Shown here in pieces: positions 9,850 through 59,599 of a DNA stretch of 64,000 bases. The position numbers and the translations under genes were made by a program. How positions within the stretch are numbered: the first letter of the stretch is position 1; the number at the start of each line of letters is the position of its first letter. This DNA comes from Polyangiales bacterium (GTDB lineage Bacteria; Myxococcota_A; Polyangia; Polyangiales; Polyangiaceae), in the NCBI GenBank assembly GCA_038231275.1, contig JBBRLQ010000010.1, positions 128,001 through 192,000 on the forward strand, given 5' to 3'. The notes beneath the pieces are model-generated. The model did no database searches and was not told the origin of the DNA. It saw only the letters and a program-made list of their open reading frames with translations.

Positions 9850-9865
9850 CGCAATGCGTGTGCCC
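9850..9865 (-). promoter_or_regulatory. sigma54 -24/-12 promoter-like box
   Basis: GGGCACACGCATTGCG; -12 C is 14 nt before ATG 9837. Confidence 0.55.
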
Positions 9866-10014
9866 CGCTCAAAGGGCCTATTTTTGCCGCGGATTGACGT
9901 GGTTCACCGCGGAACCACCCGCCGGTCCTCGCGAGCTGCGCGCGAGGGCGCGCGATCGATCGCGCCGGTCGCGAAGGGGACAGGATGCCTCGGCGGGCGC
10001 GCCTTCTCGCTCCG

Positions 10015-10030
10015 TGGCACATTGGCTGCA
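10015..10030 (+). promoter_or_regulatory. sigma54 -24/-12 promoter-like box
   Basis: TGGCACATTGGCTGCA upstream of ATG 10079. Confidence 0.6.
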
Positions 10031-10078
10031 CCGCGCACGGCGCCGCTCGCAGTCCAACCAGGGCGCCGAGGAAAATCG

Positions 10079-11764
10079 ATGGGATCCGCAGCCACGACGA
10101 CGCGCGCGCCGCTCCGAGGGCTCCTCGTGCCGCTCGTGCTCACGGCGATCCTGTCGCTCGATTGCTACGGGACGAGTGGCGGCGGGGATACGGCGGGGCA
10201 GCCCGGCGCGCCTGCGGTGGCGCCGACGCTCACGCCGACGCGCCGGCTTCGTCGTCTGAGCCGCCGCGAGTACGACAACGTCGTCCGCGATCTCCTCGGC
10301 GACACGTCGCATCCCGCGCGGGCGTTCGTCGCCGACGCGTACGCCAACGGCTACGACAACGGCTCGGCGGGCCTCGCGGTGCAGTCCGATCAGGTCGCGT
10401 CGTACCAAGCCGCCGCCGAGTCGCTCGCCGCCGCCGCCGTCGCGCGTGACCTGGGCCGACTCATTGGCGGGTGCGACGTCGCCACGATGGGCGCCGACGG
10501 CTGCGTGGATGCGTTCTTCGACGCCTTCGCCGCGCGCGCGTTCCGTCGCCCGCTCTTCGCTCCCGAAAAGCAGCGCCTGCGCGACGTCTTCCACGCCGAG
10601 CTCGCCGCGGGCAGCGATTTCGTCACCGGCGTGCGCACGCTGATCGAGGTCGTCCTCCAGTCGCCGCAGTTCTTGTACCGCGAGGAGCTCGGACCGATCG
10701 GCGCGCTTGGATCGCCGGGAAAATCCTTGAGGCTCAGCGACTGGGAAATCGCGTCCGAGCTCTCGTTTCTGCTCACCGGCTCATCGCCCGACGACGCGCT
10801 CTGGTCCGCGGTGCAAAATGGTCGATTCACGACCGACGACGATCGCCGTCGCGAGGCGGCGAGGCTCGTGGCGACTCCCGGTGCGAAGGAAGCGCTCAGG
10901 ACGTTCTTGCACGCGTGGCTCGGCACCGACCGGCTCGTCGATCTGAGCAAAGATCCCGCCGCGTACCCTGCCTTCGACCTGACCACCGCGGCGTCGATGC
11001 GCGGCGAGCTCGATCGCGTCTACGACGACGCGCTCGCGGCGCCCGACGGATCCCTTCGTCGCCTCTTCACGTCGAGCGCGTCGTACGTCGACGACGCGCT
11101 CGCCCCCGTCTACGGGCTTCCGCTCGCCGGCGGCAGCGCCGATTTTCGGCCGGTCGCGCTCGATCCTGCGCTCCGGCGGGGCGTGCTCACGCGCGCCGGC
11201 TTCCTCGCGGTCCACGCGGACACTGACGGCTCCGGACCGATCGCGCGCGGCGTGTTCGTGCTCGGCGCGATCATGTGCGCAGCGCCCGCGCCGCCGCCTC
11301 CCAACGTCCCGCCCGCCGTTCCTGCGGGCGATCCGAGCGCGCAGAACCTCACGACGCGCCAGCGATTCGAGCGCCACGTGTCCACGCCCTTCTGCGCGAG
11401 CTGCCACACCCGCATCGACGGCATCGGCTTCGGCTTCGAGCAGTTCGACGCGATCGGCGCCCTCCGGTCCATCGAGCGGGGACAACCGGTCGACACGAGC
11501 GGCGCCGTCGTCGGCACCGGCGAGGTCGACGGCGCCTTCGTCGGCGCGTCCGAGCTCGACGCCAAGCTCGCCGGGAGCAAGGTGCTGAGCGACTGCTACA
11601 TGCGGCAGGCGTACCGGTTCGCGATGGGGCAAGTCGAGCCGGACGGAACCGATCCGACGCGCCTCGCGGGCGGATTTTCGTCCGACGCGCGTCTGGTCGA
11701 TCTCTTCCTCGCGATCGTCGCCGATCCGGTGTTCGTGACGCGCACCTTCGAGGCGCGACCATGA
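10079..11764 (+). CDS. DUF1592/DUF1588/DUF1595-type (PSD/PSCyt) heme c protein
   Basis: RRLSRREYDNVVRDL, LQSPQFLYR, PIARG, CASCH, GFGFEQFDAIG. Confidence 0.9.
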   Translation: MGSAATTTRAPLRGLLVPLVLTAILSLDCYGTSGGGDTAGQPGAPAVAPTLTPTRRLRRLSRREYDNVVRDLLGDTSHPARAFVADAYANGYDNGSAGLAVQSDQVASYQAAAESLAAAAVARDLGRLIGGCDVATMGADGCVDAFFDAFAARAFRRPLFAPEKQRLRDVFHAELAAGSDFVTGVRTLIEVVLQSPQFLYREELGPIGALGSPGKSLRLSDWEIASELSFLLTGSSPDDALWSAVQNGRFTTDDDRRREAARLVATPGAKEALRTFLHAWLGTDRLVDLSKDPAAYPAFDLTTAASMRGELDRVYDDALAAPDGSLRRLFTSSASYVDDALAPVYGLPLAGGSADFRPVALDPALRRGVLTRAGFLAVHADTDGSGPIARGVFVLGAIMCAAPAPPPPNVPPAVPAGDPSAQNLTTRQRFERHVSTPFCASCHTRIDGIGFGFEQFDAIGALRSIERGQPVDTSGAVVGTGEVDGAFVGASELDAKLAGSKVLSDCYMRQAYRFAMGQVEPDGTDPTRLAGGFSSDARLVDLFLAIVADPVFVTRTFEARP

Positions 11765-13116
11765 GCCGCATGTCCTTCGGCCGCCGCAAGCTCCTCATGG
11801 CCCTCGCCGCGGTGCCCGCGACGGCGTCGTTCGCGCGCACGCTCCTCGCAGGGCCGCCGCCGCCGGGCACGCCACCGGACAAGCGGCTCGTCCTCGTCAT
11901 GCAGAACAACGGCACGCAGCAGGCGAAATTTTGGCCAGGCGCGACCATGAGCTCGCCGATCCTCGATCATCTGTTCGTCGATGCGGCGACCGGCCAGGAC
12001 AACGGTCTCAAGGCGAAGACGACCATCGTGAAGGGCGTGTACGTGCCCAACGACGGCAACGGCACGAACGGAAATCAGCACGACATGGGCTTCGCTCGCA
12101 TGTTCACCGGCGCCAAGCTGACGGCGCTCGGCGGGCAACCATGGGGAGGCGCAGCGTCGGTGGACCAGCTCGTCGCGCGCGCGTGGAACGTCGACACGCT
12201 CACGCTCGCCGTGCTGGCGTCGCAGACCGAGCCGCACCCCAAGCCGGGCTTCGATCACCGAGAGTCGTTCTCGTACCTAGGCCCTGCGACGCTCAAGCAC
12301 CCGCGCAAGGATCCGCGCGCGATCTTCGACTACCTGTTCCCGCCAAGCGGCGCGGGGCAGAACGATCCGGCGGTGGCGCGCCGTCGCGCGAGCGTCCTCG
12401 ACGCGGTCGCGGGAAACCTCGGCGACGTCTCGGCCCGCCTCGGCGCCGACGAGCGAGCGAAGCTCGACTACCACCTCTCCGCCATTCGCGACGTCGAGCG
12501 GCGCGTCACCAACACCTGCGGAATCCCCGACGGGCGCCCGCCGGATTACCTCGCACTCGACGGGACCGCCGAGGTGAGCACCGACGCGTACATCACGCGC
12601 ATGGTCGACGACATGATCGATCTGCTCGTCCTGTCCATGAAGTGCGGCATCAGTCGCATCGCGACGCTGCAGCTCGGGTACGGCGGCGGAAAATGGCGCT
12701 TCGGGTGGCAGGGCATCAACCTGAACTGCCACGACGGCGTCGCGCACCTCGACACGTCGGACGGCGGGAGCAGCGCCGTCAACACCGAGCGCGTCGTCCT
12801 CATGAACCAGTACTACGCGAGCCGCGTCGCCAAGCTCGCCACGCAGCTCGACGCGATCCCGGAGGGCAGCGGCACGATGCTCGACAACACGCTGCTCGTC
12901 TGGGCGAACGAGCTCGGGCGCGGCGATCACAACCAGGAGAACGTGCCGATCGTGCTCATCGGCAAGGCCGGCGGCGCGCTGCCCAAGGGCGGGCGCGTGA
13001 TCGACGCCGGGCGTCAGCCGTTCAACCGCCTCGGCTGCACCATCCTCCGCGCGATGGGGCAGCCGGCGGCGGGCTTCGGCGACGTGCCGGACTGCGGCGT
13101 CTTCCACGGTTTGTAA
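11761..13116 (+). CDS. DUF1552-family protein (Tat-like signal)
   Basis: ATGA overlap with the upstream gene; GRRKLL signal; SVDQ, KLDYHLSAIRDVE, EGSGTMLDNTL. Confidence 0.9.
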   Translation: MSRMSFGRRKLLMALAAVPATASFARTLLAGPPPPGTPPDKRLVLVMQNNGTQQAKFWPGATMSSPILDHLFVDAATGQDNGLKAKTTIVKGVYVPNDGNGTNGNQHDMGFARMFTGAKLTALGGQPWGGAASVDQLVARAWNVDTLTLAVLASQTEPHPKPGFDHRESFSYLGPATLKHPRKDPRAIFDYLFPPSGAGQNDPAVARRRASVLDAVAGNLGDVSARLGADERAKLDYHLSAIRDVERRVTNTCGIPDGRPPDYLALDGTAEVSTDAYITRMVDDMIDLLVLSMKCGISRIATLQLGYGGGKWRFGWQGINLNCHDGVAHLDTSDGGSSAVNTERVVLMNQYYASRVAKLATQLDAIPEGSGTMLDNTLLVWANELGRGDHNQENVPIVLIGKAGGALPKGGRVIDAGRQPFNRLGCTILRAMGQPAAGFGDVPDCGVFHGL

Positions 13117-13140
13117 CTCCATCCCTCTCCCTCATGCGGG

Positions 13141-13338: not shown

Positions 13339-13449
13339 GTCTTCATCCTCCCGCGGCGCTTGATTGCGCCTCTCGAAGAGGCAGTCGCCGGCCGGGGAGG
13401 GTGTGAAGAAATAATCGAAAATCCCCCCAAAAATGGGGACGCGACCAGA

Positions 13450-16074: not shown

Positions 16075-16140
16075 CGGCCCCCCTTCACGTCGATGCTAGG
16101 GAAGCCGGTCGGCGCGCTCAAGGTCCGTCTCGCGGCGCCT

Positions 16141-16911: not shown

Positions 16912-16984
16912 CGGTCGAGCGTACAGGCTTCGATGGCCGGCGTCGGCGGCTGACGCTCCTACGCGCTCGACGTTCGCATCGCCA

Positions 16985-22644: not shown

Positions 22645-23136
22645 TCAGCGCCCCGAGACCTTCGTCGTCACGGTCGCACGTGTCGCGATGTCCGGCGGGA
22701 GCGAAGGCTCGGTGGCGGCCAGCTCGTAGCCCTTTCGGACGAACTCCTTGCGCGCCTCCCAGTCGTCGGGATCGCGACCGGCCGTGGCGAGCCACTCGCT
22801 CTTGAGGCGCTGGTCGATCCCTTCGTTCCAAACCGGGTCGGCGTTGCCGTACTGCACGCGCGCCGCGTGGCCGTAGCGGTAGAAGACCTCCGCCTCGTTC
22901 CAATCGCCGAGGACCCTGGCGGGATTCGCGTGATTGATGTCAGGCAGGTGCTGCTGCCCGGCGGCCTGCTTCACGGTGTCGGTGAGATCCTGGTTCATCT
23001 CGTGGCCGCCGAGGCCGAGATCATGTTTGGTCTGCGACCAGTCGCGCCGCAGCGCATCGCGCGCGCGCTCCCAAGCGCTGCCGTGAACTTGATCGCTCCA
23101 CCAGGACGGACGCCATGACGATAGGGTTGCCATCAT
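22645..23136 (-). CDS. Trp-rich hypothetical protein (paralog of the N-terminus of 43142..43918)
   Basis: Shared AW..(K/R)(E/D)A.RRDW.QTKHDLG.GGH..NQ...DTV.QA.G block. Confidence 0.8.
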   Translation of the reverse strand: MMATLSSWRPSWWSDQVHGSAWERARDALRRDWSQTKHDLGLGGHEMNQDLTDTVKQAAGQQHLPDINHANPARVLGDWNEAEVFYRYGHAARVQYGNADPVWNEGIDQRLKSEWLATAGRDPDDWEARKEFVRKGYELAATEPSLPPDIATRATVTTKVSGR

Positions 23137-23147: not shown

Positions 23148-23163
23148 AGCGAGTTCCGTGCCA
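23148..23163 (-). promoter_or_regulatory. sigma54 -24/-12 promoter-like box
   Basis: TGGCACGGAACTCGCT; -12 C is 13/16 nt before ATG 23136/23133. Confidence 0.6.
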
Positions 23164-25067: not shown

Positions 25068-25083
25068 GGGCATCACTCGTGCA
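25068..25083 (+). promoter_or_regulatory. sigma54 -24/-12 promoter-like box
   Basis: GGGCATCACTCGTGCA; -12 C is 15 nt before GTG 25097. Confidence 0.5.
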
Positions 25084-26084: not shown

Positions 26085-27173
26085 ATGAATCAGGACAACA
26101 CGGGCACAAGCCCCCCTGCGTGGGGCGCAAATGCGCCACGCGGGATCGAAAATGCGTCGGCGACAGCGGCGCATCACAAGCGACGCGTGATGGTGTGTCT
26201 CGACCGATCTCCCCGCGGCGAGGTCGGCATTCCTTTCGCCGGCTTCATGGCGCGCGCGCTCCACGCCGAGCTCACGCTGCTGCATGTCCTCCCCTGGCAG
26301 GCGGACGCCGATCCTGCGACGGTCGACGTCCTCGGCTGGGAGATCTCGCGGCGCGAAGCCGAGCAGTACCTCGCGCGGATGCGCGAGAAGGTAGAAGCCG
26401 GTGAGCTCTCGCCCGAGACCGTTCGCGCCGAGCTCGCCCAAGGTCAACCGGCGGAGCGGGTGCTTTCACTCGAGCGCGAGCTCCAGGCCGATCTCACGGT
26501 CCTGGCGCGTCGCGGCGAGGGCGGCAACACCGGATGGAACCTCGGCGCGACCGCGCAGCGCGTGCTCATGAACGCGTCGGGCTCGGTGCTCATCGTGCCG
26601 TCCGACGGCCCGGCGCCCGCCGTGCCGCCCGCGCGCATCCTGGTGCCGCTCGACGGATCGCAGCGCGCCGAGAGCGTGCTCCCGCTCGTGATCGAAGCGG
26701 CGGCGGAGCAGCACGCGGAGGTCTTCTTGGCCCACGTCGTGAGCGAACCGCGGCGCTCCGGTGTCCTCACCGATGGAGAGGACCTCCGCCTCGCGCGCGA
26801 TCTCGCGACGCGCCTTCAGGCGGGGGCAGAGGCGTACCTGGCCGGTGTCCGCGAGCGGATCCTCGGCGGCCTCGAGCGCGTCCAGGTGCGCGTCCTCCGC
26901 CGCGCGGACACCCGTGAGGCGCTGCTGGACCTGGCGCGCGACGAGAAAATCGAGCTCCTCGTCTTGTCGGCGCACGGCATCACGTGCAACGGCGACCATC
27001 CGTTCGGGAGCGTGACGAGCCACGCGCTGGCGCACGCGACGTTGCCCGTGCTCGTGGTCCAGGACATCCGCAGCGGCAACGGCAACGGTAGGCGCTCCGA
27101 TCGGCCGCCGCCGCGGGTTGTCAGTGACGTCGCGCCGAGGCCTGGCCTCTCCAGCAGGACGGAACTGCGTTGA
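26085..27173 (+). CDS. Tandem universal stress protein (two USP domains)
   Basis: VCLDRS...LGATAQRVL...VLIV and ILVPLDGS...SAHG...FGSVT...VLVV. Confidence 0.9.
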   Translation: MNQDNTGTSPPAWGANAPRGIENASATAAHHKRRVMVCLDRSPRGEVGIPFAGFMARALHAELTLLHVLPWQADADPATVDVLGWEISRREAEQYLARMREKVEAGELSPETVRAELAQGQPAERVLSLERELQADLTVLARRGEGGNTGWNLGATAQRVLMNASGSVLIVPSDGPAPAVPPARILVPLDGSQRAESVLPLVIEAAAEQHAEVFLAHVVSEPRRSGVLTDGEDLRLARDLATRLQAGAEAYLAGVRERILGGLERVQVRVLRRADTREALLDLARDEKIELLVLSAHGITCNGDHPFGSVTSHALAHATLPVLVVQDIRSGNGNGRRSDRPPPRVVSDVAPRPGLSSRTELR

Positions 27174-30100
27174 CGACGGAGACGACGACCACGCCCGCGG
27201 CGGGAGCCGTACCGATTGCGACCCGTGACGCGCTCGCGGCGCTCGCCGCCGAGCTGGCCCGCAAGCACCAGCCGCTCAAGCGCGCGCCGCTGCTCACTCC
27301 GCGCCTCGCGAACGTGCCGGTCCTCGCCGCCGCGATCGCGCGGTCGCTACGCGCGTTTCGCGTGCAGAGGCCCGACGACGCCGCGTACCAGAAAGCGGGG
27401 GAGTGGCTCCTCGACAACCACTACATGTGCGAGCGCGCGCTCCGTCAGGTTCGTCGCGAGCTGCCGTCCGGCTTCCGCCGTCACCTTCCGCACGCAGGCG
27501 ACGACACGCTGCCGCGCGTGCTCTACATCGCTCGCGGCCTCGTCCAGGGGACGGCGCTCGAGCTCGACGAGCCGACGCTCCTCGCCTTCCTCGACGAGTA
27601 CCAGAAGCACTCCCCGCTCACCGTCGCCGAGCTCTGGGCGCTGCCGACGCTCCTCCGCCTCGCGATGCTGGAGGTTCTCGTACAGACCTTGGACCGTCTC
27701 CTTCTCGCGCGCGAATCGGCAGAGGCGTGGTGCGACGTGCCCATCGATCCGGCGCTCGGCGTCGAACGGTGCATTCGTGGGCTTCGGCTCCTCGCCGAGA
27801 TCGACTGGAAAGAGATCTTCGGGGCCACCAGCGCAGTCGAGTCGATCCTTCGGCAGGATCCTGCGCAGATCTACACGCGGACGGACTTCGAGACGCGCGA
27901 CGCGTGCCGTAAGGTGGTCGAGCGGCTCGCGTGGGACACCGACGTCCAAGAGGTCGACGTGGCGCGCGCGGCCATCGCCCTCGCGGAGCGGAGCCCGTCC
28001 GACCCGCGGCGCGGTCACGTCGGCACCTACCTCATCGGCCCGAGCTGTGACGAGCTGGAGGCGATCGTTGGTCACCGCCCGCGTGCGCGGATGGAGCGGG
28101 TGCGCCGCGCGTTTTCGAGGCGCCCGACCCTGACCTACCTGGGATCGGTCGCGGGTCTGACCGCGGTCCTCTTCGCCGCGTTCGCCGTGGGCGTAATGGC
28201 GCTCGCTCCGTCCCATGCGATCCTGCTCGCCGCGCTCGCGCTCGTGCCCCTGTCGTCGGTCGCAGTCGCGGTCGTCCACACGCTGCTGCTCACGCTGCTC
28301 GCGCCTCGGACCTTGCCGGAGCTCGATTTTTCTAAGGGAATTCCCGCGGAATTTCGCACCGCCGTCGTCATGCCGGCGCTGATCGCCGCGCCGCGCGACG
28401 TCGACGAGCTGCTGCGGCAGCTGGAGGTGCACTACCTCTCGCATCCCGATCCTGCCCTCGCGTTCGTCCTCCTCGTCGACCACACCGACAGTGACGCGAA
28501 GCCGGACGACGCGGCGCTGCTCGCGCACGCGGAGGCGCGCATCGCGGAGCTGAACGCCGCGCATGTGCCGTCGGGCGCCGGTCCGTTCCACCTCCTCTAC
28601 CGCGAGTCCCGCTGGAACCCCGCCGAGGGGCGCTTCATGGCGTGGGAGCGCAAGCGAGGGAAGCTCGAGGAGTGGAACCGTCTCCTTCGCGGCGACACGA
28701 CGACCAGCTTCGTCCGTCGCTTCGGAGATCCCAAGGGGCTCCTCGGCGTCCGCTTCGTGATCACCCTCGACGCCGACACGCGACTCCCCCTCGGCGCCGC
28801 GAATCGCCTCGTCGGGCTCATGGCGCATCCGCTCAATCAGGCTGTCTTCTCGGCCGATGGGAGGCGCGTCGTCGACGGCTACACGGTGGTGCAGCCGCGC
28901 GTCGAGACGTCGCCGCTCGGCGGTCCGAGCACGTGGTTCAGCCGAATGCGCTCCGGCGACACCGCGATCGACATCTACACGCGCGCCGTCTCCGACGTGT
29001 ACCAGGACCTCTTCGGCGCCGGCATCTACGTCGGGAAGGGCATCTACGACGTCGACACCTTCATGCGGAGCCTCGACGGCCGCGTGCCCGACGACTCGCT
29101 CGCGAGCCACGATCTGTTCGAAGGGTCGTGCGGGCGCGCGGGGCTGGCGACCGACATCGTGCTCTTCGAAGAGTATCCGCATCACTACCTCGCCTTCGCG
29201 CGTCGGCAGCACCGGTGGATCCGCGGCGATTGGCAGCTGCTCCCGTGGCTCGCTTCGCGCGTGCCGGGCCGCGCCGCCGGCGAGCGCGTGCCCAACACGC
29301 TCGGCACGATCGATCGCTGGAAGATCTTCGACAACCTCCGGCGCAGCCTGCTCGCGCCCTCGCTCCTCTCGCTCGTCGTTGCGGGGCTCTTCACGCTCCC
29401 GGAGGTGCTGACCCCCCTCGCGCTCTTGCCGCTGTTCGTTCCGCTGATCCTGACGCTGGTCGTCTGGCGCGGAGGGCCATTGCGCGAGCCGCTCGGACGC
29501 TTCGCCATCGGCGCGCTGTCGTTGCCGCACGACGCGTGCACGGCCATCGACGCGATCGTCCGCGTGCTGGCGCGCCTCCACACGCGCAAGCGCCTCCTCG
29601 AGTGGGTGACGGCGGCCCACACGGCGCAGAGCTTGCGGGACGGCTCGTCCGCGCGCCGCTTCTACTGGGACATGCGCGCGTCGATCGCCCTCGTCGGAGG
29701 GATCGGGGCCGCGCTCCTCGTCGTACGTCCGATCGCCCTCGCGCCCGCCGCGCCGCTCCTCGTCGCGTGGCTCCTGGCGCCCGAGCTCTTGCGACGGGCC
29801 AGCGCGCCTGCGAAGCCGGTCGCGCCGCTCCGTATCGGAGATCGCAAGGTGCTCCGTCGCCTCGCCCGCCGCACGTGGCTCTTCTTCGAGTCGTTCGTCG
29901 GCCCCGGCGATCAGTGGCTCCCGCCCGACAACTTCCAGGAAGAGCCGCGCGGCGCCGTCGCCCACCGCACGTCACCGACGAACATCGGCCTCCTCTTGAT
30001 CGCGGAGCTGTCGGCGCACGACTTCGGGTACATCGGACCGACCGAGCTGTGCCTGCTCTTGCGGCAGTCGTTCGACTCGCTCATGCGGCTCGAGCGGTAC

Positions 30101-38318: not shown

Positions 38319-39329
38319 CTAGTCGCCGTCGACCTCGACGCGGTTTCGTCCCTTCGCCTTCGCGCGATAGAGCGCGGCGTCGGCGCGGCCCAGCCACTCG
38401 GCGACGCCGCGATCGTTCGAGCGATCGAGCTCCGCGACTCCGAAGCTCACCGTGACGGGCTCGCCGCGGGCGCCAGGGATCGCCAGCGCCTCTACTGCCG
38501 CGCGCACGCGCTCCATCGCCGCCGCCGCTTGCAGCAGCGACTGCTCGGGCAGGATCACCACGAACTCCTCGCCGCCGTAGCGGTAGTGTCCGTCCCCCTC
38601 GCGCAGCGCGTCACGGATCGTCTGGGCGATGCGCCGCAGGATGTCGTCGCCTTTGAGGTGACCGAATGCGTCGTTGTAGGACTTGAAGTGATCGATGTCG
38701 CACATCGCGAGCGAATACTTGTGGCCGTAGCGCATCACGCGTGACCACAGGTTGCGGAGATCCTCGTCCATCGAGAGGCGGTTCTGCACCTGCGTGAGCG
38801 AGTCGAGGCGCGCGACGCGGAACGAGGCCTCGCTGTCGCGCAGGAGCCTCGCGTTCTTCTCGACGAGCGTCCGGTTTCGCGCGAGGGCGCGCCCGGCGCT
38901 CGCGAGCTGCGCGCGGAGCTCGTCGACGTCGAACGGCTTCGAGTGGTAGTCGTCGGCGCCGGCGTCGATCCCACGCGCGAAGTGGTCGCGATCGTCGAAC
39001 GCGGTCATGAAGATGAAGTAGGTGTAGGTGTCGCCGTCGTCCTGGCTGCGCGTGCGTTGGCACAGTTCCATGCCGTTCATGCGCGGCATCGCCCAGTCGC
39101 TCAGGATGACGTCAGCGCGCTCCAGCTGGTGCAGCTCCCAAGCCTCCATCCCGTCACGCGCGTCGACGCACTGGTACCCGAGCCGCTCCACGGTGCTCCG
39201 CAGCAAGCTTCGCGTGTCGTCGTCGTCGTCCACGACGAGGACGCGAATCGACGACGGGAATGGCGTGAGGATGCGCTGGTCGGCCATACGCTCCGGCTCC
39301 GAGGATAGGGTGGTGTCGCTCGAGTCCAT
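38319..39329 (-). CDS. Response-regulator diguanylate cyclase (REC-GGDEF)
   Basis: SDWAMP; DIDHFKSYNDAFGH; I-site REGD; RYGGEEF. Confidence 0.93.
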   Translation of the reverse strand: MDSSDTTLSSEPERMADQRILTPFPSSIRVLVVDDDDDTRSLLRSTVERLGYQCVDARDGMEAWELHQLERADVILSDWAMPRMNGMELCQRTRSQDDGDTYTYFIFMTAFDDRDHFARGIDAGADDYHSKPFDVDELRAQLASAGRALARNRTLVEKNARLLRDSEASFRVARLDSLTQVQNRLSMDEDLRNLWSRVMRYGHKYSLAMCDIDHFKSYNDAFGHLKGDDILRRIAQTIRDALREGDGHYRYGGEEFVVILPEQSLLQAAAAMERVRAAVEALAIPGARGEPVTVSFGVAELDRSNDRGVAEWLGRADAALYRAKAKGRNRVEVDGD

Positions 39330-39344: not shown

Positions 39345-39360
39345 TGCACCGCGCGTGCCG
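39345..39360 (-). promoter_or_regulatory. sigma54 -24/-12 promoter-like box
   Basis: CGGCACGCGCGGTGCA just after the kinase stop; -12 C is 17 nt before ATG 39329. Confidence 0.6.
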
Positions 39361-40563: not shown

Positions 40564-40579
40564 GGGCATGGGAGCTGCA
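40564..40579 (+). promoter_or_regulatory. sigma54 -24/-12 promoter-like box
   Basis: GGGCATGGGAGCTGCA; -12 C is 14 nt before in-frame GTG 40592. Confidence 0.5.
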
Positions 40580-45296: not shown

Positions 45297-45521
45297 TCAC
45301 GACGGCTTGGGGCCGTGGCCGGGTTTGATCTTCTCGATCCATTCATCGATCTGCTTCTCGGCGTCGTCCTTCAGGATGCCGTAGTGCTGCTGGAGCTTGC
45401 CGATGAGGTGCTCCTTCTTCCCTGCGACGTTCTTGAGGTCGTCGTCGGTGAGCTTGGCCCATCGCGACTTCACCTGGCCTGCCAGCTGGTGCCATTCCCC
45501 CTCGATCTGCGTCCAATTCAT
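45297..45521 (-). CDS. csbD: CsbD-family general stress protein
   Basis: MNWTQIEGEW...KLTDDDL...GKLQQHYG; GAGGAGG RBS. Confidence 0.93.
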   Translation of the reverse strand: MNWTQIEGEWHQLAGQVKSRWAKLTDDDLKNVAGKKEHLIGKLQQHYGILKDDAEKQIDEWIEKIKPGHGPKPS

Positions 45522-45572: not shown

Positions 45573-45588
45573 AGCACCTTCCATGCCG
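45573..45588 (-). promoter_or_regulatory. sigma54 -24/-12 promoter-like box
   Basis: CGGCATGGAAGGTGCT upstream of csbD. Confidence 0.55.
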
Positions 45589-45626: not shown

Positions 45627-46490
45627 CTAGATCCCGGGAAGCGATGCGCCGAACTCGCGTAGGACCTGGAACGTGCTCGAGATGGTCTCGCCGGCGACGA
45701 CCGGCGGGAGATCGCCGCTGACGCCGCCGAGTATCGCGGTGATGTTGTCCTCGCCGCCGCGCTCCTTCGCGAGCGCGATGAGGCTGTCGCACGCAACGTC
45801 GAGGCGCGGCGCCCACAAGATGGTGCTCGCGATCTCCTGTGCGGTGACCTTGTTGGTGAGTCCGTCGGAGCAGACGAGGAAGCAGTCCCGTTGGCGGAGC
45901 GTGAGCTTGCCGAGGGCCACCTGCACGTCGGCCTTCTGCCCCATGGCCTGGAGGATCACGTTGCGGAACGGCGCGCGCCCTGCCTCCTCGGGCTTGAGCG
46001 TGCCGGCGTCGACGAGGAGCTGCACGTAGCTTTGATCGCGCGTCACCTGCAAGAGCTCGCCGTTGCGCAGGACGTAGGCCCGCGAGTCGCCGACCTCCGC
46101 GATGTACGCGGTCGCGCCATCGAGGACCAGCGCGGTCACCGTCGCGCCCATTCCTTCGCGCCCCGGAACCTGCGAGGCCTCCCACGCGTCGCGGTTCGCT
46201 CGCTCGACGGCGCGCGACAGGAGCGCGTCGCTGTCCTTGCGATCGACGCCAGAGGCCATCGAACGGCAGAGCGACTCGACCACGAGCGCGCTCGCGACCT
46301 CTCCCGCCGCGTGTCCGCCCATCCCGTCAGAGACGGCGAGCAGAACGCCGTGCTCTCCGATTTCGAAGCGCGTGATGGGCGACGTGGTGACGAGGCTGTC
46401 GCCGGTCAGGTCAGCGATGACGAACGCGTCCTCGTTGCGGGCGCGCTTTCCAATGTCGGTCCGGGCACAGACGGTCAGGTTCACGGTCAT
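45627..46490 (-). CDS. PP2C-family Ser/Thr protein phosphatase
   Basis: RARNED, VSDGMGG, VGDSRAY, CSDGL, GGEDNIT. Confidence 0.93.
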   Translation of the reverse strand: MTVNLTVCARTDIGKRARNEDAFVIADLTGDSLVTTSPITRFEIGEHGVLLAVSDGMGGHAAGEVASALVVESLCRSMASGVDRKDSDALLSRAVERANRDAWEASQVPGREGMGATVTALVLDGATAYIAEVGDSRAYVLRNGELLQVTRDQSYVQLLVDAGTLKPEEAGRAPFRNVILQAMGQKADVQVALGKLTLRQRDCFLVCSDGLTNKVTAQEIASTILWAPRLDVACDSLIALAKERGGEDNITAILGGVSGDLPPVVAGETISSTFQVLREFGASLPGI

Positions 46491-46502: not shown

Positions 46503-46518
46503 TGCACGACTCACGCCA
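46503..46518 (-). promoter_or_regulatory. sigma54 -24/-12 promoter-like box
   Basis: TGGCGTGAGTCGTGCA directly after the kinase stop; -12 C is 14 nt before ATG 46490. Confidence 0.55.
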
Positions 46519-46519: not shown

Positions 46520-47719
46520 TCAAAAGCCAGGATCGCGCGCGACATCGGCCAGCTGCGGTCGCGGCGCGGGTGCATCGGCACGCCCCATTCGTGCATCACC
46601 GGCGTTCGAGCGCTCGCACGCGTTCTGATCGAGCGAGACCGAGAAACGCTGCGCTCGCAGGCGCGGCGGCGCGTGGGCGGCCGAGAACGCCGTCGGCGGC
46701 GCGATCACGGCGGTGACCGAGACCCAAACCAAAAGTGAGGCTGCGACGAGCGCGCCGAGGTAGCGCGCGCGAGGCCGTGAGAGCTTCCCGATGCGACCGC
46801 TCATCGCTCCGCGAAGCGCGTTGGCCATTTCGGCCGCGCTCGCGAAGCGCTCGTCCGGATTGCACTTGAGCGCGCGCGCGATCACCGCCCAGAGCGCGGG
46901 AGGCGCCGACGCGATCGGAGCGACGTGATCGGCGAGCAGCACGACGGACAGGATCGGCTTGTCGGCGCCCGCGAAGGGGTTCTTCCCGCCGAGCATCTCG
47001 TAGAGGAGGATTCCCATCGCGAAGACGTCGGTGCGAGCGTCCACAGGATGGCCCATCGCCTGCTCGGGCGACATGTAGCTCGGCGTACCGACGACCTCCC
47101 CGCCCATCGTGAGGCCGGCGCCGTCGAAGCGGGACTTCGAGATCCCGAAGTCGAGGAGCTTCGTCGTCATGTGTCCGTCGGGATCGCTCGCGAGAAAGAC
47201 GTTGGCCGGCTTGATGTCGCGATGGACGATCCCCGCCCCGTGCACGTGCGAGAGCGCGGAGAGCAGGTCGAGCGCGATACGGACCGCGTCGACCGGCGCG
47301 AGCTGCTCTTCGGCGTCGATGCGCTCGGCGAGCGTGTGGCCGTGGAGCGACTCGAGGACGAGGGCGAGCCGCCCGTCGGTCTCGAGGAGATCGAACACCT
47401 GGACGACGCCGCGATGCGAGAGGCTCGCCGTCGCGCGCGCCTCTCGACGAAGTCGCGCGTGCTGTCGCGGGCACAACGCCGCGCTCTCGAGAAGAAACTT
47501 GAGCGCGACCTCACCCCCGGTCGCCTCATTGCGCGCGATCCACACCACGCCCATTCCGCCCATTCCCGCTTCACGGAGCAGCGTGTACTTACCGCCAACG
47601 GTCGCGCCTGCGACGAATTTCAGCGGTTTCGACCCAGTGTGACGCGAATGCTGCTCCGGCGTCTCGGGCAGGAGAGAAGGAGAAACATAAGAAGAGGAAA
47701 GTACTGCGGAGGGGCTCAT
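46520..47719 (-). CDS. Hanks-type Ser/Thr protein kinase with TM segment
   Basis: GMGGMG, VALK, HRDIKPAN, DFGISK, GTPSYMSPEQ. Confidence 0.92.
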   Translation of the reverse strand: MSPSAVLSSSYVSPSLLPETPEQHSRHTGSKPLKFVAGATVGGKYTLLREAGMGGMGVVWIARNEATGGEVALKFLLESAALCPRQHARLRREARATASLSHRGVVQVFDLLETDGRLALVLESLHGHTLAERIDAEEQLAPVDAVRIALDLLSALSHVHGAGIVHRDIKPANVFLASDPDGHMTTKLLDFGISKSRFDGAGLTMGGEVVGTPSYMSPEQAMGHPVDARTDVFAMGILLYEMLGGKNPFAGADKPILSVVLLADHVAPIASAPPALWAVIARALKCNPDERFASAAEMANALRGAMSGRIGKLSRPRARYLGALVAASLLVWVSVTAVIAPPTAFSAAHAPPRLRAQRFSVSLDQNACERSNAGDARMGRADAPAPRPQLADVARDPGF

Positions 47720-47733: not shown

Positions 47734-47749
47734 CGCAACACGCGTGCCG
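47734..47749 (-). promoter_or_regulatory. sigma54 -24/-12 promoter-like box
   Basis: CGGCACGCGTGTTGCG; -12 C is 16 nt before ATG 47719. Confidence 0.65.
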
Positions 47750-47759: not shown

Positions 47760-47775
47760 TGGCACCTCACGTGCA
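47760..47775 (+). promoter_or_regulatory. sigma54 -24/-12 promoter-like box
   Basis: TGGCACCTCACGTGCA upstream of GGAGG and ATG 47800. Confidence 0.6.
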
Positions 47776-49036: not shown

Positions 49037-49052
49037 TGGCGTGCTACGTGCA
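49037..49052 (+). promoter_or_regulatory. sigma54 -24/-12 promoter-like box
   Basis: TGGCGTGCTACGTGCA; -12 C is 15 nt before ATG 49066. Confidence 0.55.
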
Positions 49053-52498: not shown

Positions 52499-53917
52499 TC
52501 ACTGGAATCCGTCGCGACCCGGGTTGGTCGCCGTCGGGACCGTCGGCTCCTCGGGCGCCTTGCCCTCGTATTTTTCGAGCCGCCGGTAGAGCGTGCGGCG
52601 GTCGAGGCCGAGCATCTCGGCGGTGCGGGCCTTGTTGCCGCCGAGGAGCGTCAACACGCGCGTGATGTAGCGTCGATCGATCTCGTCGAGTGACACGATT
52701 TGCTGCTCGTCGTCGGCCGCGAGGGCGAAGCGCTCGGGACGGTACGCGTTGATTTTTTCGGGGAGATCCTCGACGACGACCTGGTCCCCACGCGCGAGCG
52801 CGACGGACCGTTCGATCGCGTTCTCGAGCTCGCGTACGTTGCCGGGCCAATTGTACGTGAGCAGCCGCTCGGCGGCTTCCGGCGAGAGGGTGAGGGCCTT
52901 CTTCGCGCCGCGCGCCGCGAAACGCGTGAGGAAGTGCGCGGCGAGCCGGAGCACGTCGCTGTTGCGCTCGCGCAGCGACGGCACTTGAATCTTGACGACG
53001 TTGATCCGGTAGTAGAGATCCTCGCGAAAGCGCCCCTTGTGCACCTCGTCCTCGAGATCGCGATGCGTCGCCGTAACGATGCGTGTGGAGAACGGGACCT
53101 CGGCGTTGCCACCCACGGGACGGACCGTGCGCTCCTGGAGCGCGCGCAAGACCTTGGCCTGCATCTCGACGGGCATCTCGCCGATCTCGTCCAGGAAGAG
53201 CGTGCCGCCGGAGGCCTCGAGGAAGAGGCCCTGGCGCTGCGACTTCGCGTCCGTGAAGGCTCCCCGCGCGTGTCCGAAGAGCTCGCTCTCGAGGAGGTTG
53301 GCGGGCACCGCCGCGCAGTTGATGGCGACGAACGGCCCGTCCCTTTGCGCGCTCGCGGCGTGCACGGCCCGCGCGACGAGCTCCTTGCCGGTGCCGGTCT
53401 CGCCCTGGATGAGGACCGACGCGTCGCTCGGACCGACGCGGCCGATGAGCTCCGTCACCCGCGTCATCACCGCGCTCTCGCCGACGAGGGCCCCCTCGGG
53501 CAGCGCGGTCACGACCTCTTGCCGAAGCCGCTTCACTTCCGAATTGAGCCGATGGTGCTGCGTCGCGCGCGCCACGCTGAGGCCGAGCACCTTGCCGTCG
53601 ACGGGCTTCGTGAGAAAGTCGTACGCGCCGGCGCGCATCGCGGCGATAGCGGAGTCCATGCTGCCGTTCCCCGTCACGACCACGATGGGCACGTCGGGCG
53701 CGGTGCCGAGGATTCTCACGCAGAGCTCGATACCGTCCATCTCGGTCATCCCGAGATCGGTGACGATGACGTCGAAGGGCTCCTTCTTCAGCTTCTCGAG
53801 CGCGTCGTGGGGCGACGTCGTCGTCGTCACGTCGCAGCCCAGTCGCGTGAGGGACGCCTCGAGCAGGTCGCACTGCGCTTGATCGTCGTCCACGACGAGC
53901 ACGCGATTGTCATTCAT
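52499..53917 (-). CDS. sigma54-dependent response regulator (REC-AAA+-Fis HTH), copy A
   Basis: TDLGM, GETGTGKE, ESELFGH, GAFTDA, FLDEIGE, FREDLYYRI, WPGNVREL, HTH. Confidence 0.95.
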   Translation of the reverse strand: MNDNRVLVVDDDQAQCDLLEASLTRLGCDVTTTTSPHDALEKLKKEPFDVIVTDLGMTEMDGIELCVRILGTAPDVPIVVVTGNGSMDSAIAAMRAGAYDFLTKPVDGKVLGLSVARATQHHRLNSEVKRLRQEVVTALPEGALVGESAVMTRVTELIGRVGPSDASVLIQGETGTGKELVARAVHAASAQRDGPFVAINCAAVPANLLESELFGHARGAFTDAKSQRQGLFLEASGGTLFLDEIGEMPVEMQAKVLRALQERTVRPVGGNAEVPFSTRIVTATHRDLEDEVHKGRFREDLYYRINVVKIQVPSLRERNSDVLRLAAHFLTRFAARGAKKALTLSPEAAERLLTYNWPGNVRELENAIERSVALARGDQVVVEDLPEKINAYRPERFALAADDEQQIVSLDEIDRRYITRVLTLLGGNKARTAEMLGLDRRTLYRRLEKYEGKAPEEPTVPTATNPGRDGFQ

Positions 53918-54210
53918 CTGACCCCATCCTTCCCGACGCTGCGGTTGGCTCGAGGTCGCCAAGGCCGCCCCAAGTGAGGCGGTCCTGCAGTTCCGTTCCC
54001 CAATGTGTGGTTCATTTCTCGCTTCAGCGATCCTCGATACCCCAGCGGATCAGTTGCCGCTGCGGTTGGGCGACGACGAGGCTTTCCCCGCGTCGATCGG
54101 CGTTTCCGCGGACGGGAAGCCCGAAGAAACGGGCGATCGTCGCGAGGGCGCGGCGAATTCGGAGAACGACCATGCGCAGCTTCGTGCACCTCGCGTGCCC
54201 AGCGGGCGGC

Positions 54211-54609
54211 TCAGGCGCGAGGACGCTTCAGCAGCCTGCAGATCGTCGCGATCAGGTGCTCGACCTCGATGGGCTTCGTCAGGTGCGCTGCAAATCCCCC
54301 GCTCCCGCGCTTGCTCTCTGGCGCGCGTTCGTAACCGCTGAGCGCGATGACAGGGACGCTTCCGCCTCCCGTCGTCTCGACGGCGCGAATCTCTTCGAGC
54401 AACGCGTACCCGTCCTGGACGGGAAGTCCGATGTCCGAGACGACCAGATCCGGCGCCTCCGCCGTAAACGCTGTGAGCGCCTCGTTGGCCGTCCTTGCCT
54501 GCAAGACAACGGCGCCGTGCTCTTCGAGAACGAATGCGACCATCTCACGCCCGTCGTCGTCATCGTCGACGAGCAGAACGCGAACGCCGGCGAGGTCACG
54601 ATCACGCAT
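54211..54609 (-). CDS. Single-domain response regulator (paralog of 25097..25531)
   Basis: VLLVDDD, VSDIGLP, HLTKPI; GAGG RBS. Confidence 0.88.
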   Translation of the reverse strand: MRDRDLAGVRVLLVDDDDDGREMVAFVLEEHGAVVLQARTANEALTAFTAEAPDLVVSDIGLPVQDGYALLEEIRAVETTGGGSVPVIALSGYERAPESKRGSGGFAAHLTKPIEVEHLIATICRLLKRPRA

Positions 54610-54627
54610 GTCCTCTACATAGCCTAC

Positions 54628-54837
54628 CTATCGCCGGCCGAGGCGTGGCGGATGAGGCGCCGGCTCCGGCGCGTGCGTCGGGTTCGGCGGCGCGTGCAGC
54701 GGTTCGTTCGGTAGGGGCGTCGGGGGAGACGGATCCGGAGGTGGCGGCGGCACCGACGGAGGCCTCGGAGGAGCCGTCGGCGGCGGCGCAGGATTTACGT
54801 TGGGCGACGGGGGATAGGGCGTGAGGGGGTTCGCCAT
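54628..54837 (-). CDS. Small Pro-rich protein (69 aa)
   Basis: MANPLTPYPPSPNVNPAPPP...; ATG lies 14 nt below a sigma54-like box. Confidence 0.45.
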   Translation of the reverse strand: MANPLTPYPPSPNVNPAPPPTAPPRPPSVPPPPPDPSPPTPLPNEPLHAPPNPTHAPEPAPHPPRLGRR

Positions 54838-54849
54838 GAACTGCACTGG

Positions 54850-54865
54850 AGCATGCAGCGTGCCG
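54850..54865 (-). promoter_or_regulatory. sigma54 -24/-12 promoter-like box
   Basis: CGGCACGCTGCATGCT. Confidence 0.55.
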
Positions 54866-55135
54866 GCGTCACCGCAGCCGCCTCGGCCGCGGGCACATCG
54901 GTTGCTTGGCAGGGGAGAGATGATGCGTATCCGGCGACGACTCCAAGCGCTGGTGCTCTCTTGGTTCGGTGTGCCTTCACGCGGAAGGGATGGCTCGATT
55001 CGCGTCCGCCGCAAGCGTCGCTTCCTCTACTGGGCGCGGTGATGCTGCAGCCTCTGAGAGTGCGCGTGTGGCGTGGCGCATTTGCTCGGGCGACGGATCG
55101 GCACGCACGACCGCCTCGACGGGTTCACGATGCGT

Positions 55136-55414
55136 TCACGACGCGAGCATGTCGCGCGGCAGACGCTCAACCGTCCACTGCGCCGCGGCTGCGGCTCGTT
55201 CGCGCGCACGTCGTCGAGTCACCACGAGGATGTCCGCGACGTGGGAGGCGCCGAGCGTCGCGAGCCTGTCTTTGATCCGACGCCCGAAGTCGGTTTCCCT
55301 CTCACCGGGCGTCTGCGCGATCACGACAGTCTCCTGCTTCGACGGCTTCACCAGCCAAAACCACGGGGAGCCGCTCTCGGCAATCACCACCCGCGTTCCA
55401 TTCCTGCGATCCAT
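55136..55414 (-). CDS. Small hypothetical protein (92 aa)
   Basis: MDRRNGTRVVIAESGSPW...; alpha/beta-like pattern; ATG lies 14 nt below a sigma54-like box. Confidence 0.55.
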   Translation of the reverse strand: MDRRNGTRVVIAESGSPWFWLVKPSKQETVVIAQTPGERETDFGRRIKDRLATLGASHVADILVVTRRRARERAAAAAQWTVERLPRDMLAS

Positions 55415-55426
55415 GAGCGCGTCTTC

Positions 55427-55442
55427 AGCAAGCGACATGCCG
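55427..55442 (-). promoter_or_regulatory. sigma54 -24/-12 promoter-like box
   Basis: CGGCATGTCGCTTGCT. Confidence 0.6.
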
Positions 55443-55457
55443 CAGCGGCTCGATGCG

Positions 55458-55473
55458 TGGCACGCGGAGTGCT
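55458..55473 (+). promoter_or_regulatory. sigma54 -24/-12 promoter-like box
   Basis: TGGCACGCGGAGTGCT; -12 C is 15 nt before ATG 55487. Confidence 0.65.
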
Positions 55474-55486
55474 GATTGGCTTCGTC

Positions 55487-55645
55487 ATGGACCCCACCCG
55501 CAAGACCGAGCAAGAGACGTGGCTGGCCAAGATCGAGCGCGCGGTTCAGAGCTTCCGCGTCGCGAGTGAGCAGGCCGTCGGGCGCGCGCAAAGCGAGATG
55601 CCGTCACCCGGACAGAGCCAACCCTCGAATCGAGGCGGGCAATGA
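55487..55645 (+). CDS. Small hypothetical protein (52 aa)
   Basis: MDPTRKTEQETWLAKIERAVQSF...; GC3-rich codons, amphipathic helix, sigma54-like box upstream. Confidence 0.5.
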   Translation: MDPTRKTEQETWLAKIERAVQSFRVASEQAVGRAQSEMPSPGQSQPSNRGGQ

Positions 55646-55722
55646 GCTGCACAATCGCCACAACGTGGCAATTATGTAACTCCGCCGCTGTGTAGTTACG
55701 GAAGGTTGCGCCCGGAATGCGT

Positions 55723-55738
55723 AGGCACTGCAGTTGCT
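55723..55738 (+). promoter_or_regulatory. sigma54 -24/-12 promoter-like box
   Basis: AGGCACTGCAGTTGCT upstream of activator copy B. Confidence 0.6.
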
Positions 55739-55789
55739 TATTCGCTGGGCGGCGCCATAAAAGCGCCACATTCTCTCGAAGGACGACCC

Positions 55790-57204
<1,415 letters not shown>

Positions 57205-57208
<4 letters not shown>

Positions 57209-58361: not shown

Positions 58362-58365
58362 CGCG

Positions 58366-58530
58366 TCACACCGACGCGCGTCTGCCGAACAAGAACGACA
58401 GCCCGGCGAGGACGACGAAGACGACGAAGAGGACCTTCGCGATCCCAGCGGAGTCGGCGGCGATCCCACCGAAGCCCATGACGGCGGCGACGAGCGCGAT
58501 GCAGAAAAAGACGGCGGCCCAGTACAGCAT
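58366..58530 (-). CDS. DUF1328 (UPF0391) small membrane protein
   Basis: [23 protein letters not shown]...[17 protein letters not shown]. Confidence 0.9.
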
Positions 58531-58541
58531 GACGATTCTCC

Positions 58542-59570
58542 TTATCGTTGGTTCAGGGTTGTTCGAGATGACGACGGGAAGACTGCCGTTCGGCCGGTGT
58601 GCCGGGCGTTCAGCTCGGAGGCGACGAGGACGAGCACCGCGGCCGTCGCGAACGCCGCGGCGAGGACGCTCCACGAGCTCACGCGGTGGTCCGCGTGTTT
58701 GTCCTTCGGCGCGGGGGACGCGCTCTTCTTCGGCTTCGGCGCCGGCTTCAGCGCAGCTTCGAAGGCGTCCGCCATCTCGGCGACGTCGGCGAACCGATCC
58801 TCGAGCTTACGTGCGAACGCTCGCGCGAACCACCCGTCGAGTGCGCGGGGCAGCTCCGGGCTCGCCAAGCATGGCCGCACGAAGACGCCGCTCGTGACCG
58901 CGACGCAGACCGCGGGATACGACGGACCGTCGAACGGCAAGCAGCCGAGCAGGCACTCGTAGGCCACCACCGCAGCGGCCCACATGTCCTCGTGCACGCT
59001 CCCGACGCCGCCCTCGACGAGCTGCTCGGGGCTCATGTACGGCCCGGTGCCAACCGTCACCGCGTCGGACTCGCCCCTGGGCTCCTCGCGGGATGACGCG
59101 ACGCCGAAGTCCACGAGCGTGACGCGCGGTTCGTCTTCCGAGCCCGAGAGCATCACGTTGGCGGGTTTGACGTCGCGGTGAACGACACCCTCTGCGTGAA
59201 CCTCGCCGAGCGCCGCGAGGAGCTCACGGATTACGCGGAGCGCGACCGTGTACGCCGGCTTTCCGCCGCTCGCCTCGAAACGATCGGACAGGCTGACGCC
59301 GTCGACGTTCTGCATCACCGCGTACGGCTGCCCGTAATGGTTGCCCGCGCAGACGAGGCGCGCCGCGCGCGAAGTCCGCAGCGCGCCGAGGATCCGCAAT
59401 TCGCGCTCGAAGCGCGCGACCGCCCGCGGATCGCCGAGGAGCTTCGGCAGCATCATCTTGATGGCGACGAGCGCGCCCTCGTGACGGCCGAGCCAAACCG
59501 TTCCCATGCCGCCGCGCCCGAGCAGCCTGAGTAGTTGAATTTTCTCTCCGACGCGGGCGACCGGTTGCAT
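58542..59570 (-). CDS. Hanks-type Ser/Thr protein kinase
   Basis: [34 protein letters not shown]-terminal TM segment; start 59570 or 59576. Confidence 0.9.
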
Positions 59571-59583
59571 CTGCATCGGAGTT

Positions 59584-59599
59584 AGCAGTCCGCGTGCCA
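59584..59599 (-). promoter_or_regulatory. sigma54 -24/-12 promoter-like box
   Basis: TGGCACGCGGACTGCT; -12 C is 15 nt before ATG 59570. Confidence 0.65.

Follow-up and report, generated by a model that had tools for sequence, protein, structure and literature searches.

Sigma-54-type promoter boxes set against ATG start codons point to near-leaderless mRNAs in a Polyangiales genome

Can a sigma-54 promoter lie so close to a start codon that its transcript would have hardly any leader? The question is raised by a stretch of 64,000 nucleotides (nt) from a Polyangiales bacterium (contig JBBRLQ010000010.1, positions 128001-192000; hereafter the window), which belongs to a genome of 9.28 Mb with 69% G+C in 164 contigs. 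The nearest relatives of one protein encoded in the window are from uncultured Polyangiales/Myxococcota, with identity up to 70%. A preliminary description of the window listed twelve sigma-54-type boxes (GG-N10-GC) a short distance before start codons, and proposed a sigma-54-specific class of near-leaderless mRNAs used largely for signalling genes. We consider it likely that these boxes are genuine -24/-12 promoters of RpoN (sigma-54), set so that the mRNAs would be leaderless or nearly so and would be translated without a Shine-Dalgarno (SD) sequence. The whole case rests on sequence statistics, which are laid out below for the genome and for the window.

Box-to-start distance was expressed as the gap, which counts the bases that separate the -12 C from the A of the start codon and includes neither end. 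The preliminary description counted from that C to that A, which gives the gap plus 1. Both strands of the genome were scanned with the core pattern GGCAY-N6-TGC, which is equivalent to the GG-N10-GC geometry, and 506 matches were found. At gaps of 11, 12, 13, 14, 15 and 16 after the core, an ATG is present in 2, 20, 52, 33, 15 and 12 cases, respectively, against about 5.5 per position elsewhere downstream. Taken together, 120 of the 506 core matches have an ATG at gaps 12-15 where 22 are expected (Poisson P ~6e-48), so the genome-wide check of box-to-start distance returned a clear peak. ATG is enriched approximately 5-fold overall and close to 10-fold at gap 13, the mode. No comparable peak follows the core for GTG or TTG (GTG at gap 13: 12 versus a background of about 7). 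Neither the loose pattern GG-N10-GC (197,633 matches) nor a reversed control pattern gives an ATG peak, only codon periodicity, and the peak is likewise absent when N4, N5, N7 or N8 takes the place of N6 between the half-sites. Of the five spacings compared, the canonical one has the fewest matches, 506 versus 761-903 when the half-sites are shifted by 1-2 nt. This under-representation suggests that stray RpoN sites are counter-selected.

The base requirements of the motif were examined at the 112 sites with true gaps of 13-16. Substituting either G of the GG, or the G or the C of the GC, abolishes the excess of adjacent ATGs; a C for the T before the GC is tolerated, and so is C or T at core positions 4 or 5. 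When aligned, the 112 sites give YGGCACG-N4-(T/G)TGC(T/A), with C or T before the GG in 82, G after GGCAC in 77, T or G before TGC in 80, and T or A after TGC in 88. The flank consensus derived in this way agrees with the published sigma-54 consensus yTGGCACGrnnnTTGCw, as quoted in PMC12754779. A sigma-54 weight matrix was then derived from this genome with the box-plus-ATG sites as its training set; the core-pattern counts given above are free of the bias that this training brings. Summed over bins of matrix score, the total excess amounts to about 300 sites. Among the 176 top-scoring boxes (score of at least 14), 156 are wholly intergenic, while intergenic DNA makes up only 9.9% of the genome. 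Start-abutting boxes account for 63 of the 176, a share that is biased upward because the matrix was trained on such sites, and for 69 boxes the next called start follows at 17-300 nt; of the remainder, 5 have a non-matching start no more than 16 nt away and 39 have other positions.

The machinery for such promoters is encoded in the genome. There is one rpoN gene (Sigma54_DBD, E 1e-64), whose product of 512 amino acids (aa) has a glutamine- and leucine-rich N-terminus and the DNA-binding box ARRTVAKYR. The Sigma54_activat domain has 89 matches genome-wide, 81 of them with E <= 4e-36, and two are located in the window. The description of the boxes as sigma-54-like promoters is thus upheld in silico by motif, spacing and machinery, all of which would be expected of genuine sigma-54 promoters.

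In the window itself, all twelve listed boxes are present, each at exactly the distance reported. Ten of their starts are ATG codons that fall within the genome-wide signal, and these stand; the other two are GTG codons (25097 and 40592) that fall outside it. Two sites of the same geometry were missing from the list, at 54186 (minus strand, gap 12) and 54905 (plus strand, gap 14). A score of at least 12 coincides with an ATG at gaps 12-16 for ten boxes in the window; the expected number is 0.2 (Poisson P ~3e-14). The start-abutting boxes are as follows.

9851..9864, minus strand: sigma-54-type box (GG..GC), score 12.5, 13 nt before ATG 9837
23149..23162, minus strand: box, score 14.4, 12 nt before ATG 23136 and 15 nt before ATG 23133
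25069..25082, plus strand: weak box and doubtful member, core pattern matched, score below 8, 14 nt before GTG 25097
39346..39359, minus strand: box, score 15.7, 16 nt before ATG 39329
40565..40578, plus strand: box and doubtful member, score 11.8, 13 nt before GTG 40592
46504..46517, minus strand: box, score only 8.5, 13 nt before ATG 46490 (PP2C phosphatase, 45627-46490)
47735..47748, minus strand: box, score 15.1, 15 nt before ATG 47719 (Ser/Thr kinase, 46520-47719)
49038..49051, plus strand: box, score 9.2, 14 nt before ATG 49066 (STAS-MlaE by Pfam)
54186..54199, minus strand: box absent from the earlier list, score 13.2, 12 nt before ATG 54173
54851..54864, minus strand: box, score 14.5, 13 nt before ATG 54837
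54892..54905, plus strand: box absent from the earlier list, score 15.9, 14 nt before ATG 54920 (40-aa open reading frame (ORF), 54920-55042)
55428..55441, minus strand: box, score 16.0, 13 nt before ATG 55414 (92-aa ORF, 55136-55414, no Pfam match)
55459..55472, plus strand: box, score 15.2, 14 nt before ATG 55487 (52-aa ORF, 55487-55645, no Pfam match)
59585..59598, minus strand: box, score 16.0, 14 nt before ATG 59570 and 8 nt before the in-frame ATG 59576

Several of these starts can be judged by what follows them. The gene at 8203-9837 (minus strand) encodes a Phage_lysozyme2 protein, and its product begins with a lipoprotein-type signal peptide exactly at ATG 9837. The gene behind ATG 39329 (38319-39329, minus strand) encodes a receiver-GGDEF protein; an ATG closer to its box (gap 6) is out of frame and opens only 61 aa. 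In the Ser/Thr kinase at 58542-59570 (minus strand), the Pkinase domain begins at residue 11-13. ATG 49066 opens the first gene of an Mla operon that extends to 52491. The ORF at 22645-23136 (minus strand, 163 aa) has no Pfam match, and neither has the frame of GTG 40592, which stays open upstream to 40502. The gene at GTG 25097 encodes a receiver domain, and AGAGGG lies 8 nt ahead of the GTG; with such a start codon and such a sequence before it, the mRNA there is equally likely to be leadered and to use a ribosome-binding site. The ORF at 54628-54837 (minus strand) encodes 69 aa of proline-rich, low-complexity sequence and is followed 19 nt on by a receiver gene (54211-54609, Response_reg), so that it may be a real peptide or the 5' region of the receiver gene. 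The weak single sites at 25082, 40578 and 49051 could be of chance origin.

Boxes farther from their starts are present as well, and the contrast drawn between the two kinds in the preliminary description is upheld. The genes for csbD, the glycosyltransferase (GT4) and YtxH, and those starting at 60904 and 55790, are separated from a box by 25-52 nt, and a GGAGG-type sequence precedes the ATG of each by 5-7 nt. The boxes placed in this way, and the genes for the two enhancer-binding proteins of the window, are as follows.

45574..45587, minus strand: leadered sigma-54-type box before csbD (45297-45521), score 13.8, 52 nt from the ATG, with GAGGAGG 6 nt before the ATG
47761..47774, plus strand: short-leader box before the glycosyltransferase gene, score 11.0, 25 nt from ATG 47800, with GGAGG 5 nt before it
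60946..60959, minus strand: leadered sigma-54-type box before the gene at 60425-60904, score 15.1, 41 nt from the ATG, which AAGGAGG precedes
52499..53917, minus strand: gene for an NtrC-type enhancer-binding protein with Response_reg, Sigma54_activat and HTH_8
55790..57208, plus strand: gene for an NtrC-type enhancer-binding protein (Pfam), with a leadered box at 55724-55737 (score 11.9) that is 52 nt from ATG 55790, and AAGGA ahead of the start

If the start-abutting boxes are promoters of near-leaderless mRNAs, the ATG next to the box has to be the start codon. Genes were called with a codon-usage model that is blind to the motif (7,872 genes, 90% of the genome covered). For 281 boxes with a score of at least 10 and an ATG at gaps 12-15, the ATG opens an ORF of at least 60 aa in 230 cases, is in frame with a called gene in 203, and is the exact motif-blind start in 120. 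At control gaps of 22-25, 32-35 and 42-45, exact coincidences with the called start number 13 of 81, 9 of 62 and 11 of 85, respectively. Third-position G+C periodicity sets in directly 3' of the box-adjacent ATG. Furthermore, 116 of the 183 genes of the class have a signal-peptide-like N-terminus when read from this ATG (by a crude hydropathy rule that looks for K or R in a short initial segment and for a hydrophobic stretch after it), and a lipobox-like motif is present in 30 of these. The same rule finds 2,025 of 7,872 among all called genes (odds ratio 5.0, P 5e-26 against the start-abutting class). A signal peptide must occupy the true N-terminus, which fixes the box-adjacent ATG as the start, with ATG 9837 as the example in the window. 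The box-adjacent ATGs are real start codons.

Leaderless mRNAs have been defined by a transcription start that coincides with the start codon or lies no more than about 5 nt from it (as quoted in PMC12754779). The 12-16 nt that follow the -12 element belong to the promoter and its melted region and hence leave no room for an SD sequence. An SD-like tetramer (GGAG, GAGG or AGGA) is found in only 17 of 132 box-ATG spacers. The earlier suggestion that the leader is too short for an SD sequence therefore appears to be right, as this spacing would allow few leader bases. ATG and GTG starts occur in a ratio of 78:7 in the sigma-54 start-abutting class versus 660:275 for starts led by TANNNT (Fisher P 6e-6). 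The base at -1 is C in 68% of 71 sigma-54 sites versus 42-50% at other ATG starts, which gives mild support for initiation at the A.

The TANNNT motif marks a second class of start-abutting promoters, with a sigma-70-type -10 box. Before the 5,120 called ATG starts, TANNNT begins at -15, -14, -13 and -12 in 171, 166, 144 and 179 cases, respectively (660 in total, against a background of about 17 per position); before the 2,468 called GTG starts, it begins at -13 and -12 in 80 and 144 cases (224 in total, against about 9 per position). The box thus lies 6-9 nt before the start, with a spread of 0-3 nt similar to that of the sigma-54 class, and at least 900 genes, more than 10%, have it abutting their start (658 ATG and 273 GTG in the classes as used here). 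With this far larger class of leaderless layout alongside, the claim that leaderless expression is specific to sigma-54 is not supported. Instead, sigma-54 would be one of two promoter types that feed a general leaderless mode.

Which genes would be expressed in this way? Use largely for signalling genes, as the preliminary description had it, does not extend beyond the window. Only about 6-7 of the 60 best-scoring genes are signalling genes (two kinases, a receiver-GGDEF protein, an activator, a LuxR-type protein, a phosphatase and a CBS protein), equal to the number among 60 random genes; the window is rich in kinases, receivers and activators, and the impression of signalling is thus local to it. 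Eleven of the 60 best-scoring genes encode lytic or lipolytic enzymes or wall-binding proteins: a C-type lysozyme, GH25, an Rv2525c-like glycosidase, an L,D-transpeptidase, NAGPA, SH3_3, two PHB-type esterases, PI-PLC, PLD and a metallophosphoesterase. Many of the 60 random genes encode housekeeping enzymes, which the sigma-54 set is without. No Pfam match was found for 28 of the 60 best-scoring genes versus 18 of the 60 random genes, which is a trend only (P 0.09). The shares of signal-peptide-like N-termini differ among the classes of genes as follows.

Sigma-54, start-abutting: 116 of 183 (63%)
Sigma-54, leadered (score of at least 12): 50 of 142 (35%)
TANNNT-led: 295 of 940 (31%)
SD-like: 588 of 2,004 (29%)
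Other: 1,042 of 4,693 (22%)

With 63% in the start-abutting sigma-54 class versus 22-35% in the others, the bias toward export is tied to the combination of sigma-54 and a start-abutting position, and to neither alone. The products of the start-abutting class are mostly exported proteins, lipoproteins and lytic enzymes.

Conservation was followed in two genomes of the same genus (G001 and G002; 78-82% DNA identity over the region). The box of the PP2C gene (TGGCGTG..GTGCA) and its 12-13 nt spacing are kept in both congeners, with the spacer sequence changed. The box of the kinase gene starting at 47719 and its 15-nt spacing are kept in G001, where the spacer has diverged. G002 has retained the MlaE box, followed 13 nt on by a GTG, and G001 has lost it. 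For footprinting of MlaE, 45 of 80 fetched orthologue loci were used (those matched from near residue 1), and a few distant relatives have a GG-N10-TTGCA box 12-14 nt before an ATG or GTG.

To describe the distribution of the layout, the number of core matches with an ATG at gaps 12-15 (peak) was divided by the number at gaps 22-25 (off-peak). A control read backwards proved unreliable (Desulfobacter has 43 matches versus 7 backwards and 56 off-peak), so the distribution was judged by the peak/off-peak ratio only. This ratio is 5.0 here (120/24) and 4.2 and 2.9 in the two congeners. It reaches at least 2 in 10 of 21 genomes in the set of closest relatives, this one included, and in 15 of 101 genomes in an even sample of the phylum, where it is at least 3 in 6 and has a median of 1.18. 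An uncultured 'delta proteobacterium' (7.8 Mb) has 115/26. No peak was seen in Desulfobacter (43/56), Acidobacteriota (33/31) or Eiseniibacteriota (21/39), with one genome examined for each. The layout is real but patchy, and it is strongest in this genus among the genomes examined. In the Eiseniibacteriota metagenome-assembled genome, a sequence of at least 39 nt with a sigma-54-like core is present in more than 20 identical copies across the chromosome, and is probably the end of a mobile element.

The boxes could be real and held at a fixed distance without being sigma-54 promoters, either as the site of another sigma factor or regulator or as an element of the 5' untranslated region (UTR) that replaces the SD sequence. 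Position alone would also be compatible with a translational element in a longer 5' UTR, and no shared upstream activator repeats were found in the cluster of boxes at 53.9-55.9 kb. What speaks against such an element is the exact signature, i.e., an invariant GG and GC, a strict N10 and the extended consensus, and also the canonical RpoN with its DNA-binding box and the approximately 81 activators encoded alongside it. The same motif also stands 25-52 nt ahead of SD-led genes in the window, unlike an element tied to the start, and it has no evident complementarity to the 3' end of 16S rRNA (with the anti-SD sequence taken from general knowledge). We regard this explanation as improbable. The sigma-54 promoters could also be real while the adjacent ATG reflects a preference of the initiation region, with translation starting further downstream. 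This could be explained by C and A at -1 and +1 being a general preference for initiation, and the called start does differ from the box-adjacent ATG at 161 of the 281 sites. Against this, 203 of the 281 ATGs share the reading frame of the downstream gene (chance would give one third), and the 120 exact agreements come from a caller that does not see the motif. In addition, 116 of 183 products have a well-formed signal peptide with a short charged n-region counted from this methionine, and codon periodicity sets in immediately after the ATG. We regard a start further downstream as very unlikely.

The pattern may finally be suspected to be a chance by-product of high G+C and of starts picked with the box in mind, a caveat that the preliminary description itself had raised. 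Loose GG-N10-GC does occur 197,633 times without an ATG peak, a search of the window for the consensus with two mismatches found 56 matches where 45.7 are expected, and the single weak sites at 25082, 40578 and 49051 would be compatible with chance. For the class as a whole, however, this caveat is refuted by the strict core (120 versus 22 expected, P ~6e-48), by the flat spacing controls and by start codons confirmed through motif-blind calling, and in the window 10 strong sites stand against 0.2 expected. Chance is hardly a credible source of the pattern.

Genuine RpoN promoters fused to start codons thus appear to be the best explanation of the boxes. Under this explanation, RpoN holoenzyme would bind the box and an activator would open the promoter, and transcription would begin at the A of the start codon or 1-4 nt before it. 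The 5'-terminal AUG would be translated without an SD sequence, by the machinery that serves the larger sigma-70-type leaderless set, and enhancer-binding proteins would control expression almost entirely at the step of open-complex formation. The fixed distance from box to ATG would be hard to explain other than by a transcript that starts at or just before the AUG. What the sequence shows directly is the motif, its geometry, the tie to genuine ATG starts, the genes of the sigma-54 machinery and a conservation that is partial; sigma-54 dependence, the position of the transcription start and the mode of translation are inferred. The class comprises roughly 180-300 genes, i.e., about 2-4% of all genes, and takes up about a third of the strong sigma-54 boxes.

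Several observations weigh against this explanation. By textbook numbering, the C of the GC is at -12 and initiation takes place 11 nt after it, but a gap of 11 is depleted, with 2 sites only, and the commonest gap is 13. This suggests either that initiation occurs 1-2 nt further downstream here or that the leaders are mostly 1-3 nt long. C at -1 is only moderately above the general start-codon context of the genome. The share of 63 of 176 comes from high matrix scores and leans upward with the training set, and the motif-blind gene caller is crude, with imprecise starts. Conservation is partial: G001 has lost the MlaE box, and most of the 45 orthologous MlaE loci are without it. Roughly half of the close relatives have a weak distance peak or none.

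Some further features of the window were observed. Between the two divergent genes for NtrC-type activators, six sigma-54-type boxes lie within 1.6 kb (53900-55900). Four of the six are arranged back to back as divergent pairs (54851/54905 and 55428/55472), and the boxes precede small ORFs (40-92 aa) and one receiver gene. The ORF at 54024-54173 (minus strand, 49 aa), which sits upstream of an enhancer-binding protein gene, is a paralogue of the ORF at 54920-55042 (plus strand, 40 aa); both products are arginine-rich and have in common the N-terminal RIRRxL...FGxPxRG, and no third copy was found by a pattern search of the genome. A repeat search of 53900-55900 found only short two-copy, chance-like matches and, in that cluster, no shared upstream activator site of the kind that sigma-54 promoters have some 80-150 bp upstream. 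Elsewhere, a leadered sigma-54-type box at 10016-10029 lies ahead of a planctomycete-type gene pair at 10079-13116 (plus strand), with PSD3, PSD5, PSD4 and PSCyt3 followed by DUF1552/HXXSHH. The gene at 27170-35674 (plus strand) encodes a protein of 2834 aa in which glucoamylase-like and two GH94 domains are combined, a layout of the type seen in cyclic beta-1,2-glucan synthases or phosphorylases.

Sigma-54 promoters and leaderless genes have each been described before. In Myxococcus xanthus, katB/ahpC with PexR is an example of a sigma-54 promoter (PMC12754779). In the work on this species consulted here, sigma-54 promoters are described as often 'intragenic' with long 5' UTRs, and not as leaderless (PMC9765219). 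Cappable-seq in M. xanthus mapped a strong transcription start to position -1 of MXAN_1525 at each of five time points (PMC8844925 Table S2B, from a supplement that covers only about 70 genes related to cyclic di-GMP). Sigma-70-type leaderless genes, with TANNNT about 10 nt before the start, are known from Actinobacteria and Deinococcus-Thermus (PMC3160421 and PMC12340547). Leaderless genes were predicted in 8 of 33 delta-proteobacterial genomes, with an average of 15.8% of genes (Zheng et al. 2011, PMC3160421); only Pribnow-like signals were searched in that study, and other leaderless promoters were judged unlikely to be frequent. The TANNNT class found here (more than 10% of genes) is consistent with that prediction. 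According to a study of Bradyrhizobium japonicum, leaderless genes have no specific promoters on record. A search of the full-text literature, subscription journals aside, brought up no account of leaderless genes driven by sigma-54 as a class. By the literature found, the pairing of a sigma-54 promoter with a near-leaderless start would be a new combination of two known mechanisms.

This pairing would join activator-dependent sigma-54 transcription with leaderless translation, which are usually handled separately. If true, leaderless expression would not be bound to the sigma-70 -10 box, the sole promoter signal used in genome-wide predictions. In practice, a box with an ATG 12-16 nt after it would predict both the start codon and the transcription start for 2-4% of genes and would mark likely members of the sigma-54 regulon, both of them relevant to annotating myxobacterial genomes, where ordinary gene callers lean on ribosome-binding sites. 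With exported proteins and lytic enzymes as its main cargo, the class offers a lead on how predatory soil bacteria may switch on their secreted arsenal. It is conceivable, as a tentative proposal, that in some myxobacterial lineages start-fused sigma-54 promoters are a dedicated channel for the exported proteome (lipoproteins, lytic enzymes, lipases), controlled solely through promoter opening by an activator and without UTR-based regulation, that this arrangement has been gained and lost repeatedly, and that some of the 'intragenic' sigma-54 promoters of M. xanthus face starts annotated too far upstream.

The boxes resemble canonical sigma-54 promoters, of which glnAp2 and nifH are examples, in the -24 GG and -12 GC, the extended consensus, the strict spacing, the presence of RpoN and the NtrC-type activators, two of them in the window. 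The canonical examples have 5' leaders with ribosome-binding sites, whereas about a third of the strong boxes here would leave 0-4 nt. With sigma-70-type leaderless genes they have in common a promoter at a fixed short distance, the lack of an SD sequence and a preference for ATG; the difference is that here the promoter is of the unrelated sigma-54 type, with an ATP-driven activator. Within this genome the two classes also differ in start codon and cargo: GTG starts are common in the TANNNT class and rare in the sigma-54 class, and signal-peptide-like N-termini make up 31% of the former versus 63% of the latter.

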